A stretch of 64,000 nucleotides of DNA from Eledone cirrhosa (Eukaryota): contig OZ024766.1 of the NCBI GenBank assembly GCA_964016885.1, positions 2,976,001 through 3,040,000 of the forward strand, written 5' to 3'. The position numbers and the translations under genes were made by a program. The notes beneath the pieces are model-generated. The model did not search any database and was not told the origin of the DNA. It saw only the letters and a program-made list of their open reading frames with translations. Positions 41,001-64,000 of the stretch are shown piece after piece; positions within the stretch are counted from its first letter, which is position 1, and each line of letters starts with the position of its first letter.

Positions 41001-41047
<47 letters not shown>

Positions 41048-41334: not shown

Positions 41335-41456
41335 ATATTGAACTCCTTTAACCATCTTTTGATCTTATATTATGCATACTCCAGTCCCACAAACTGTAGA
41401 GTGCTTCTTATCCGATATCTGCATTGCTTTATTGTACTACAATAAAACTCACCTCC

Positions 41457-41492
<36 letters not shown>

Positions 41493-41500
<8 letters not shown>

Positions 41501-41720
41501 TAACAGATTAAAGTTTAAGCAAAGAATCGCTGCTTTCACCCTTAACGGGATCTTCTGAAGATCCCGTTAAGGGTGAAAGCAGCGATTCTTTGCTTAAACT
41601 TTAATCTGTTATTTTAATAAATATTTGCTCTACGGTTCTTATATATTTTATATATATTTATCCTTATCGAGCCCTCTTTGGATTTTAGTCTTCAAATTTA
41701 TTATTATTACTATTATTACT
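41493..41720. mobile_element. Fold-back element (63-bp perfect arms around T41556, plus tail) in (TA)n, with a partial hammerhead-like core
   Basis: 41493-41555 is the reverse complement of 41557-41619. CTGAAGA-TCCCGTTAAGGGT-GAAA begins at the axis. Confidence 0.65.
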
Positions 41721-58905: not shown

Positions 58906-60612
58906 TCATATTTCACATGAATAAGGTTTTTCACCAGTGTGTATTTTTTTGTGAAGTTCAAGATGAGAATTACGAGAAAAAGATTTCCCACATATTTCAC
59001 AATGGAAGGGTTTTTCACCAGTGTGTATTCTTTTGTGTAGTTCAAGATTAGAACTATGAGAAAAAGATTTCCCACATATTTCACAATGGAAGGGTTTTTC
59101 ACCAGTGTGTGTTCTTTTGTGACGTTCAAGATTAGAACTCTGAGAAAAAGATTTCCCACATATTTCACAGGAATAAGGTTTTTCTCCTGTATGCTTTCTT
59201 TTGTGCTTTAGAAGATTGTACTTCAGGGTGAAAGATTTCGCACATATTTCACAGTGGAAGGGTTTTTCACCAGTGTGTATTCTTTTGTGAAGTTCAAGAT
59301 TAGAACTATGAGAAAAAGATTTCCCACATATTTCACAATGGAAGGGTTTATCACCAGTGTGTGTTCTTTTGTGAGGTTCAAGATTAGAACTACGAGAAAA
59401 AGATTTCCCACATATTTCACAATGGAAGGGTTTTTCACCAGTGTGTCCTCTTTTGTGAAGTTCAAGTTGAAAACTCTGAGAAAAAGATTTCCCACATATT
59501 TCACATGAATAAGGTTTTTCTCCTGTATGCTTTCTTTTGTGCTTTACAAGATTGTACTTCAGGGCGAAAGATTTTGCACATATTTCACAGTGGAAAGGTT
59601 TTTCACCAGTGTGTATTCTTTTGTGAAGTTGAAGATTAGAACTCTGAGAAAAAGATTTCCCACATATTTCACAATGGTAGGGTTTTTCCCCAGTGTGTAT
59701 TCTTTTATGAAGTTCAAGATAAGAATTCTGAGAAAAGGATTTCCCACATATTTCACAATGGAAGGGTTTTTCACCAGTGTGTATTCTTTTGTGAGGTTCA
59801 AGTTGAGAACTCTGAGAAAAAGATTTCCCACATATTTCACATGAATAAGGTTTTTCTCCAGTGTGCTTTCTTTTGTGCTTTACAAGACTGTACTTCTGGG
59901 TGAAAGATTTCCCACATATTTGACAATGGAAGGGTTTTTCGCCAGTGTGTATTCTTTTATGAGGTTCAAGTTGAGAACTCTGAGAAAAAGATTTCCCACA
60001 TATTTCACATGAATAAGGTTTTTCACCAGTATGTGTTCTTTTGTGATGTTCAAGATTAGAACTCTGAGAAAAAGATTTCCCACATATTTCACATGAATAA
60101 GGTTTTTCTCCTGTGTGCCTTCTTTTGTGCTTTATAAGATTGTACTTCTGGGTGAAATATTTCCCACATATTTCACAATGGAAGGGGTTCTCTCCAGTGT
60201 GTATTCTTTTGTGCAGTTCAAGATGAGAATTCTGAGAAAAGGATTTCCCACATATTTCACAATGAAAGGGTTTTTCCCCAGTATGTATTCTTTTGTGAGG
60301 TTCAAGTTGAGAACTACGAGAAAAAGATTTCCCACATATTTCACAATGGAACGGTTTTTCACCAGTGTGTGTGCTTTTGTGATGTTCAAGATGAGAACTC
60401 TGAGAAAAAGATTTCCCACATATTTCACATGAATAAGGTTTTTCTCCTGTGTGCTTTCGTTTGTGCTTTACAAGATTGTGCTTCTGGGTGAAAGATTTCC
60501 CACATATTTCACAGTGGAAGGGTTTTTCTCTACTGTGTATTTTCTCGTGTGAGGATAGTTTCAGTTTTGAAGAGAAAGTTTTCCTGCAAATCTCACAGCT
60601 ATATTCAGACAT
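58906..60612 (-). CDS. Poly-C2H2 zinc-finger protein, subfamily C, 20 fingers; TGA at the second Cys of finger 21
   Basis: 568-aa ORF ending YSCEI*. Confidence 0.92.
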
Positions 60613-60742
60613 ATTTCATAAAGGAATCTCACCACTTCCACTCATATATTAAGAAATGTAGCATTCAGTTGGTAAAGTAATAAGATGTATGACAGCGTAA
60701 GACTGATCTTGGAAGAAGAAAAAGCAAGTGCTTATATATATA

Positions 60743-61775: not shown

Positions 61776-61806
<31 letters not shown>

Positions 61807-61807
61807 A

Positions 61808-61940
61808 CGAAGGAAATGTGGTAAGGAACCAGGTAGACCATAACGCACCAAAGTACTCAATACTTAGGGTAGTAGAGTGGGTAAAAGGAACGAGTAGGAC
61901 CCCGACGTTGAGCTCAGCCATCGGGGTCCTACTCGTTCCT
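61808..61940. mobile_element. Short fold-back element (20-bp perfect arms at 61886-61905 and 61921-61940, unique tail on the left) in (TA)n
   Basis: AGGAACGAGTAGGACCCCGA / TCGGGGTCCTACTCGTTCCT; TA repeats on both sides. Confidence 0.55.
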
Positions 61941-61998
61941 ATATATATATATATTAAAATACAGATATTAATAAAATAGATGTTCTTTTGATCAATTA

Positions 61999-62053
61999 CA
62001 TTTTATTATACATATTTCGGATGTACAACAGTACGTCCTCATCAGACAAAATA
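61999..62053 (-). ncRNA. Minimal type I hammerhead ribozyme motif
   Basis: Minus strand reads TATTTTGT-CTGATGA-GGACGTAC tgtt GTACATCC-GAAA-TATGTA-TA-ATAAAATG: 8-bp stem I, G10.1-C11.1 pair and self-complementary ATATGTAT. Confidence 0.8.
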
Positions 62054-62142
62054 TGATACATGACATACCCTGAGATGTTAAATGGTTAAGATTGATTAAA
62101 TCTTAACCATTTAACATCTCAGGGTATGTCATGTATCATTAT

Positions 62143-62195
62143 ATTTTATCTGATGAGGACGTACTACTGTACCTCTGAAAGATGTATAATAAAAT
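62143..62195 (+). ncRNA. Minimal hammerhead motif, more degenerate mirror copy
   Basis: CTGATGA at 62150 and GAAA at 62177; the stem III palindrome is broken (AGATGTAT). Confidence 0.55.
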
Positions 62196-62337
62196 TTAAT
62201 TGATCCAAAGAACATCTATTTTATTAATATCTGTATTTTAATATATATAACTCTGGAAAATTATTTTTTCTTGTAGAGTGCTTCCAATCTACTGTAAAAC
62301 TCATTCTTTGATGTACTCATTGAATCTTGTTTAACTC

Positions 62338-62385
<48 letters not shown>

Positions 62386-63227
62386 ATATTATATAAATGG
62401 AAACTATATTTATAAAACCATATTTATTCTATTATATATATTTCAATGGTACCAAAAATTTATCTTATTACATTACAACAGGTTGTAAGTATATAAATAT
62501 CTATATAGATTAATAATTGTGCAAGTATAAGTATTACTGGTGATTTTATAGAAATAGAAAAAGCCACAATTATTAGTTGTTTATATTTCTAATATGAGTT
62601 TCGAAGGATATTGATTTTGTATTTTCCATTAAAAAAAAACAACACGTAGTTCAAGTTGCAAGAAGAGAACAATTTGTAGATTCAAATATTTTGTTCCAAC
62701 ATTGAAAATGTTTTCAGAATATTGTTAATTTACCGAAGTTATATAGTTTATCATACAAGTTATAATATTTATGTTTGCCCGACTGAAAGGAAAGGGAAAA
62801 AATAACTCCAATCTTGTTTGTTAACCGTTAAATTTGATGAATGATTTACTCATAAATATATAGAGAAAATTATATATTATTTTGTGTGAGATTAATTTTT
62901 CAAGGATGAGAGTTTCAATTGTATATTATTTTAGTCTAAAGATGTGTGCAAGTTTAAAGATCAAAGAAGAGGAAAAAAGTATTGTGCATTTAGAAGAACT
63001 ATCGTAAAGAGGATAACTTTCAGAATGTCAATTAAAGATTATCAATCTACATCTAAAAAAAAAAAAAATAGATTTAGAGGAGTGTCATTAAGAAAATAAT
63101 GTCAAATGTTAAAAATATTAAAATATTAAAATTAAGGAAGATCATTTAAAACAATTAAAATTTTTAAAGAAAATACTCAGTAAATAATAGGATCATTTTA
63201 AAGGTGTATCAGATATAGTCAAATGTA

Positions 63228-64000
63228 ATCATCATCATCATCATTTTACGTCCACTTTTCCCTGCTTGCAAGGGTGGGACGGGTCTTATTCAGCACAGCA
63301 TCTCCCCACCCGCCACGGTCCCCTGCCATCCCCACCGCGAGCCTCAGCGATCTGAGGTCTGTTCTCACCACCTCCGCCCATGTTTTTCGTGGTCTACCTC
63401 TACCATGTTTTCCTTCAACTGGCATTTCCTGACCCATCGGTCATCCTCCATGTGCATCACATGTCCATACCACCTCAGTCTCCTCTCTCGCACACTACAT
63501 TCTATCCTTCTCAGACACAGTTTCTCTCTCAACACATCCATGCTGGGTCGTTCACACACATTGACACTGCACATCCAATGGAGCATATCCTCTGCAGTTG
63601 CTGCCCATGTCTCACTACCATGCAGCATATAATCGGCCTTTCGTCAGCAGAGGAAGCAGCTCCCTAAATTTCTTCCAACCCGTCCTTATTCTAGATACTA
63701 TGGCCTTGGAACACCCCCCTCCCATACTAATCTGATCTAGGTACCGGAAGCTATCCACCACTTCTATAGCACCCGCCTGCATTTGAAAAATGTGTCTATC
63801 ACTGCAACTTCTACTGTCTAATTTCCCTGTACATCTACTGCATATGTATTTCTCCCTACCTGTTAGTTTGCCTGCTATCCTGCTACATCTCTTGTGTACC
63901 CAAGATCTGCATTGTGTGCATTTTATAGAATTTATGCCAGTTCCTTTTCTACATATCGAACATGGCCATTTCCCTGACAGAATCAGAGTTTTGTCCTCTT
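63228..64000 (-). mobile_element. RTE-clade LINE 3' portion with (GAT)n tail, running off the window end
   Basis: MLHGSETW, RERRLRWYGHVMHM and GRGRPRKTW motifs with frameshifts; PHD-like Cys/His segment at ~63830-63975. Confidence 0.92.

Follow-up and report, generated by a model that had tools for sequence, protein, structure and literature searches.

What kind of element left a fold-back insertion in a (TA)n tract at positions 61951–62348, and whether the tail of that insertion holds a signal for the enzymes that made it, are the questions raised by the 64-kb stretch of DNA analysed here (the window), which comes from an AT-rich animal genome of 3.0 Gb. The fold-back, originally predicted at 61945–62340, is present, with one arm inverted and the other direct, followed by a tail (Table 1). 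Its arms (61946–62057 and 62138–62249) are 92% identical, reach inward to ~62093 and are flanked by (TA)n. We refer to this element as family A, to the element at 41041 as family B, and to the bulged hairpins that follow the two insertion ends (sites 1 and 2) as box 1 and box 2.

Table 1. Coordinates in the window of the fold-back and its parts; element positions are numbered from 0, the base before the hammerhead cut.
Feature	Position	Strand	Remarks
(TA)n target, left flank	61940..61954	.	shares a few bases with the arm end
Inverted arm	61951..62093	-	element positions -89 to +56; terminates at site 1
Minimal type I hammerhead, inverted arm	61998..62054	-	core CTGATGA 62045-62039; predicted cut 62007/62006
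Head-to-head arm junction	62092..62100	.	close to the family A 5' boundary (~-102)
Direct arm (pseudo-LTR)	62092..62244	+	positions -96 to +56; majority haplotype
Minimal hammerhead, direct arm	62143..62195	+	core 62150-62156; predicted cut after 62188
Tail	62245..62348	+	site 1 (+56) to site 2 (+157)
Box 1	62250..62282	+	bulged hairpin ACTC..TA-GAGT-GCT; 5 bases 3' of site 1
Shared 13-mer	62272..62284	+	the 3' arm of box 1
(TA)n target, right flank	62340..62380	.	first bases common with the element's own TAATATATA
Box 1 of family B (41041 element)	41378..41405	+	4 bases 3' of its site 1

The surroundings are rich in similar insertions, and Hydra-type elements of several families crowd into the same (TA)n tracts. 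A third, GC-richer family adjoins the fold-back at 61806–61939(-) as a short fold-back with a tail; it has the same box at 61878–61852, 7 bases 3' of its arm end, and this copy lacks a hammerhead core. Directly to the right, at 62381–62455(-), lies an arm remnant of family C/D running from the 3' half of stem II to site 1, while a fourth fold-back (41488–41720, arms of 68 nt) carries a box in its tail with an unusually long AT-rich loop, read by eye at ~41627–41680. The window also holds C2H2 zinc-finger arrays of 84-nt units at 58906–60615(-) and 1982–~40000, in which blocks repeat every ~4.5 kb, and at 63220–64000(-) the 3' portion of a further ORF that resembles those of retroelements, includes a Cys-rich finger and terminates in (CAT)n.

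Scanning both strands of the window for a shared hammerhead grammar (stem I of 7–9 bp, CTGATGA, stem II, GAAA, a self-complementary stretch of 6 nt and TA) returned exactly four matches, at 62150(+), 62045(-), 41273(+) and 41140(-), in agreement with the earlier claim that the 41041 and 62-kb elements follow the same grammar with different stem II and palindrome. The palindrome is, as had been noted, intact in the minus-strand copy (TATGTA, paired through G-U) and broken in the plus-strand copy by a single T>G (GATGTA); that of the 41041 element reads TGCGCA. The features of minimal type I hammerheads are present, namely the core CUGANGA/GAAA/UH, stems I and II, and a palindromic stem III with covariation. 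The lowest-energy fold of 61999–62053(-) is an alternative hairpin and not the hammerhead, both as monomer and as dimer, and in cofolding a dimer-like hammerhead formed for family B and for neither family A arm. Rfam reported neither a hammerhead nor a box family in the window or in 12 loci of relatives. Covariation was assessed in the 10 groups with at least two copies, out of 19 groups comprising 219 hammerhead matches in loci of the same genome. Pairing in stem II and in an 8-nt palindrome survives double changes (for example ATAT/GTAT, ATAT/ATAT and ATGC/GCAT); the fourth position is a mismatch throughout. Compensatory changes across copies, in both stem II and palindrome, thus bear out the proposal that the parent elements are under selection for this fold. 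Because the groups are related, this covariation reflects selection along one lineage and not convergence; the arm sequences of the two supposedly distinct families do differ, but they belong to related Hydra-type lineages and are not independent inventions. Truncations are not enriched at the hammerhead cut site.

The parent element is abundant, with 2269 first-look candidates genome-wide for family A (arm plus tail), of which 40 were scored, and 291 for family B. In 8 of 20 loci fetched by an RT fragment, arm and tail stand in sense immediately above the RT ORF. The element runs from a 5' boundary at ~-102 through the hammerhead, site 1 (+56), box 1 (+62), site 2 (+157) and box 2 (+160) to a start codon at +213, followed by RT, a Cys linker and GIY-YIG, the tail of long copies continuing into box 2 and then to the start codon. 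A single ORF with RT and then a C-terminal GIY-YIG was recognised by eye in P0001 (a 750 aa open frame of a family A subfamily), L018 and L070, together with a YRDD core, a thumb and VY..YIG..RF.NH; Pfam gave no match for P0001 or P0002. A PDB search also gave no hit. The N-terminal RW motif is RWR in copies of families A and C and RWK in most homologues, and DKG is replaced by DKT (SDKTNN in P0001 and P0002). The CxCX5C linker appears in L018 as CNCRNKTDC, plus CALC; the third linker Cys is mutated in P0001 and deleted in P0002, and P0001/P0002 have CLH/CKH of the CxH type near the C-terminus; the GIY-YIG core has no CCHH and a single internal Cys. Pieces of ORF in minus orientation in L018 and L025 are inversions.

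We compared protein motifs, target and architecture with the published description of the Hydra clade of Penelope-like elements (PLEs). The passages of Craig et al. (2021; PMC8557442) concerned with this clade describe a single ORF of RT and C-terminal GIY-YIG with RW[KR], DKT and the CxCX5C linker, a sense hammerhead in the pseudo-LTR whose stem II is flanked by one additional base on either side, and (TA)n targets with an inverted 5' copy and a tail at one end, in all of which the elements here are alike. Insertion into (TA)n and a hammerhead within the pseudo-LTR are both found, and on these sequence features membership of the Hydra clade can be assigned with very high confidence. Assignment to Neptune, Nematis or Naiad was dropped in favour of Hydra on the published clade marks; Naiad elements have an N-terminal endonuclease, DKA and no canonical hammerhead, whereas here the endonuclease is C-terminal, DKT is present and so is a hammerhead. 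A non-LTR retrozyme, with hammerhead units in head-to-tail tandem, was also rejected, as the arms here are head-to-head; the family A loci examined contain no tandem short units. A search of viral contigs found no relative of the element.

What, then, of the tail? The original prediction pointed to a 13-mer common to both tails, and this occurs at 62272 and 41395 and nowhere else in the window. Followed by A/G, a form that leaves out both versions in the window, it has 831 genomic occurrences against 6 for the reversed control, so its sharing is not due to chance. Read by eye, the thirty loci fetched for this form are tails, some from variants of family B and others from additional families of like type, and in them the 13-mer lies ~115–125 nt below the hammerhead core where that core is intact. 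Among tail-bearing copies it is exact in 24/30 of family A, 30/30 of family B and 13/20 from an arm-only search with family A, and every copy checked in these two families has at most one mismatch. A minus-strand coding (EALY) or splice-site reading of the 13-mer was rejected because the ORF lies in sense downstream of the tail. The suggestion that the motif acts in cis as a signal to the RT or endonuclease holds in that it is conserved across copies and families and behaves like one, but the unit is a hairpin rather than the 13-mer, is present twice, and is conserved across the Hydra clade.

This box has the form RCUC..(UW)GAGY-RC and occurs in two copies between hammerhead and start codon. 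RCTC pairs with GAGY, a 2-nt bulge beginning with U sits on the 3' strand, and the upper stem and loop are variable. Box 2 follows the end of the tail in families A, C and D; a pattern search found none in family B. Relatives were drawn from a metagenome scan (78 loci, 30–39% protein identity), 52 of them with a recognisable start and 39 with 170 nt above it, giving 36 distinct 5' regions. Two boxes are present in 23 of these, one in 10 and none in three; by a stricter anchored parsing, 21 have at least two, 11 have one and four have none. Any box at all was found in 6/429 ORF windows and 151/7200 shuffles, and in 7/36 antisense strands of the same regions, the last because the hairpin is partly self-complementary. 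Among published consensus sequences, as far as the supplement of Craig et al. covers them, we recognise by eye both boxes in Hydra-1_Ajap, which begins two bases before box 1, one box at the 3' end of Hydra-2_Amil and Hydra-2_Ajap, and box variants in Hydra-1_Crog and Hydra-1_Obim. The boxes carry no annotation in these sequences, and the word 'hairpin' does not occur in the supplement.

Pairing was counted by anchored parsing, because MAFFT put the 5' arms in the wrong place when 30 boxes were aligned. Of 50 distinct boxes, 47 form the first upper pair (C-G in 32, U-A in 15), a number reached by none of 20000 shuffles; the second is formed in 34/50 and the third in 27/34. When 21 elements are placed on a tree of their RTs, the first of these pairs, scored in box 1, switches four times, each time on both sides (3–4 switches under bootstrap, at least two of them forced). 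The outer pair is A-U in box 1 of the families of this genome and G-C in box 2 and in relatives, where it is uninformative because it hardly varies. The drawn structure is the lowest-energy form in only 24/50 isolated boxes, and RNA and DNA cannot be told apart by the counts of G-U against A-C in the upper stems. We are nonetheless nearly certain that the twin hairpin is a real, conserved structure. The box 1 loop of family A (62254–62275) is hypervariable, with 25 variants among 30 copies against five for a nearby segment of like length; by eye that of family D is also variable, and that of family B is not (29/30 identical). Slippage in T runs, or errors made while copying through a bound hairpin, might account for this. 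In L169, L171 and L197, metagenomic loci of one sub-lineage, a small extra hairpin with ACTC/GAGT arms was seen by eye between hammerhead and box 1.

The boxes coincide with the places where insertions end. Nearly all ends in families A, B and D lie a few bases 5' of one box or the other: at +56 or +157 in family A, 5 and 2 bases above the boxes; at +46 in 25 of 27 inverted arms of family B, with box 1 at +51; and, in family D, where box 1 is at +59 and box 2 comes directly after +149, at ~+55 and ~+150. Thirty-four repeats of the 5' region were found among relatives, 14 of which were excluded (contig ends, run-through, no box). Of the 20 informative ends, 15 fall within -5 to +8 nt of a box start, with ~6% expected for a window that was picked after inspecting the data and in loci some of which are near-copies; the other five lie at -32, 27, 62, 83 and 158. 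According to the sections of Frangieh et al. (2024; PMC11167929) that map RT starts in vitro, a PLE RT initiates internally at two positions that delimit the tail, requires RNA ~55 nt further 3', and extends both target strands, hammerhead cleavage being dispensable. By analogy, the boxes would be natural candidates for the RNA signal for RT starts in the Hydra clade, and from their position we consider it likely that the hairpin sets these sites.

How the two sites are used is visible in head-to-head insertions. In searches not selected for tails, 19 of 23 pairs combine site 1 with site 2, three combine site 1 with a partial tail, one has site 1 twice and none has site 2 twice. Independent site choice permits at most half mixed pairs, and the 19/23 were counted by hand (P=0.0013 against 50%), two internal tail deletions being classed as site 2 and query loci and duplicates omitted. 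The family A arm-only search contributed 12 pairs (nine site 1/site 2, two with a partial tail, one site 1/site 1). Because an arm-only search with family B gave no matches, family D provided the untailed replicate, with 11 pairs (10 site 1/site 2 and one with a partial tail). Where copies had been selected for a tail, the other arm of the pair ended at site 1 in 11/11 (family A) and 28/28 (family B). The inner ends gather at a fixed 5' boundary that reads TCA in families A and B. Of the family A starts from the arm-only search, 17/34 fall within -108 to -90, and in family B 28/28 inverted arms stop at one base, breakpoints there being read by eye as BLAST alignments broke at a T run. This boundary may be the transcription start. 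At the junctions of the family B loci L031–L060, an 8-nt unit taken from the 5' end of the arm is present between one and four times, which looks like slip-back synthesis at a template end.

The arms of the 62-kb insertion differ at eight internal positions. Three of them (-15A/-12C/+8G, in the inverted arm) make up the haplotype of five ORF-bearing copies (L065, L066, L071, L082 and L083). Both arms share one minority allele (+43), and minority alleles common to both arms occur in six other pairs. Since the haplotypes differ, two templates, a template switch or later conversion must be involved, and not plain snap-back; two enzymes on one RNA would account for the difference only together with a switch or conversion. 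The one-site-per-arm rule and the fixed 5' boundary lead us to read the insertion as two run-off cDNAs joined head-to-head. In the mechanism that we propose, the element's protein would bind each hairpin in the RNA, its endonuclease would nick both strands of (TA)n, and each nicked end, paired with a short AU-rich stretch immediately 5' of a hairpin, would prime copying. Both cDNAs would reach the RNA 5' end, ~100 bases above the hammerhead, and their joining would give a fold-back with a tail on one arm. In long copies, one cDNA might continue on tandem or circular RNA or jump to a 3' repeat. The hammerhead would probably be a passenger in the copying step. It thus seems probable that the insertion is a short copy of a Hydra-clade PLE in (TA)n, in which the tail hairpin, one of two, positions the RT at internal starts, and we lean slightly towards a two-primer origin of the fold-back. 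That this undescribed, clade-wide pair of hairpins acts as rulers, with one RT-endonuclease per hairpin, each primed from one (TA)n strand, would explain why the tail is optional, why there is an inverted 5' copy and why short fold-backs are so numerous; we put the chance of this fuller scheme at about even.

The boxes could instead act in DNA, the GIY-YIG endonuclease recognising a duplex or extruded hairpin in a longer intermediate, cutting just 5' of it and trimming both ends, with the fold-back arising by cDNA snap-back. The same positional and covariation data fit this, and among published accounts the passages of Craig et al. (2021; PMC8557442) on the tail attribute it to endonuclease resolution, those of Arkhipova (2013) on head-to-head repeats propose self-priming, and earlier work cited in the text of PMC11167929 has the endonuclease of D. 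virilis needing the tail in DNA. Yet the mapping in that same text shows that in a relative the tail ends are RT start sites in vitro, and snap-back yields identical arms whereas those here differ by a three-site haplotype. Three features of the boxes also suit a sense RNA: the bulge is one-sided, box 1 of family A has U-G in some copies where others have C-G, and some of the loops are C(UUCG)G. We regard action in DNA as unlikely.

It might also be that the boxes are bound by an element or host protein for translation control or packaging, and that ends lie nearby because chance AU-rich patches pair with (TA)n. Box 2 does lie ~12–40 nt above the start codon in relatives, and both sites have TA-like patches overlapping the target. 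However, these regions are AT-rich throughout and other TTAATAT-like patches (e.g. +42 to +48) are seldom used, while the distance from site to box varies by no more than a few bases among unrelated sequences, GC-richer relatives included, which leaves this account quite unlikely. The remaining possibility, that the fold-back is a MITE- or retrozyme-like non-autonomous unit copied whole, so that one site per arm records a single ancestral structure, draws on family B, in which 12/30 loci share one junction string and 28/28 stop at the same base. Against it, those 30 loci contain 17 junction strings; in families A and D junctions and arm lengths vary copy by copy, which largely refutes the idea for these families; the long arm can be either one, there are no tandem arrays, and the unit is without box 2. 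We consider it very improbable. A hairpin acting in RNA at the RT start sites is thus the reading that we retain.

The inverted 5' copy and one-sided tail have already been published, in the relevant passages of Craig et al. (2021; PMC8557442) and Arkhipova (2013), and opposite-strand hammerhead pairs are known from metazoan PLEs in those of Cervera and de la Pena (2014; PMC4209133). Since architecture and hammerheads are both in print, the fold-back is a known structure, and a hammerhead fold-back alone is ordinary for PLEs. For the twin hairpin and the one-site-per-arm rule, we found no description in the parts of article text covered or in Rfam. Neither of these, nor the tie of the hairpins to the two ends, appears in the passages and supplement of PMC8557442 covered here, and the sections of a 2026 retrozyme preprint that were covered do not mention the twin hairpin. 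On how PLEs choose internal starts, the mapping sections of PMC11167929 give two starts and not an RNA signal. What the Hydra clade offers is a covarying hairpin of 20–30 nt, conserved across proteins that are only one-third identical and lying at a set distance of a few bases behind each start. The pair allows a direct mutational test of start choice and provides a marker of element boundaries in annotation; the hairpin is possibly also a programmable start signal for RT-based insertion. Penelope-like elements are the sister group of telomerase. If our reading is true, the hairpin would be a portable signal setting where a telomerase-like RT begins on RNA.

In L1 twin priming, two target ends each prime a cDNA and the products are joined head-to-head via short matches; the internal site used by the second primer varies, and there is hardly any overlap between the two parts. 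Here, by contrast, neither start varies and the overlap of the arms is complete. The hammerheads resemble those in the passages of Cervera and de la Pena (2014; PMC4209133) in core, long stem II and palindromic stem III region, and we count as likenesses the opposite-strand pairs 100–700 bp apart and the weak in vitro activity reported there, our own examples being known from sequence; no essential difference from the hammerheads of those passages is apparent, and ours are new members. Relative to typical Hydra elements of <3 kb in the passages of Craig et al. (2021; PMC8557442), the copies here are longer (L081 has ~4.7 kb, with >1 kb of 3' untranslated sequence), the tail has ~100 nt against 30–40, and copies number in thousands. 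The closest parallel for the starts is PAc, the anole Poseidon element, for which the mapping sections of Frangieh et al. (2024; PMC11167929) likewise give two internal starts bounding the tail, and an AT-rich target, in that case from in vitro mapping. PAc belongs to another clade, its starts lie inside the ORF in an AC-rich stem-loop, and the RNA motif bound by its protein is undefined in those sections, whereas in the Hydra-clade elements a conserved candidate follows each site, within the 5' untranslated region.
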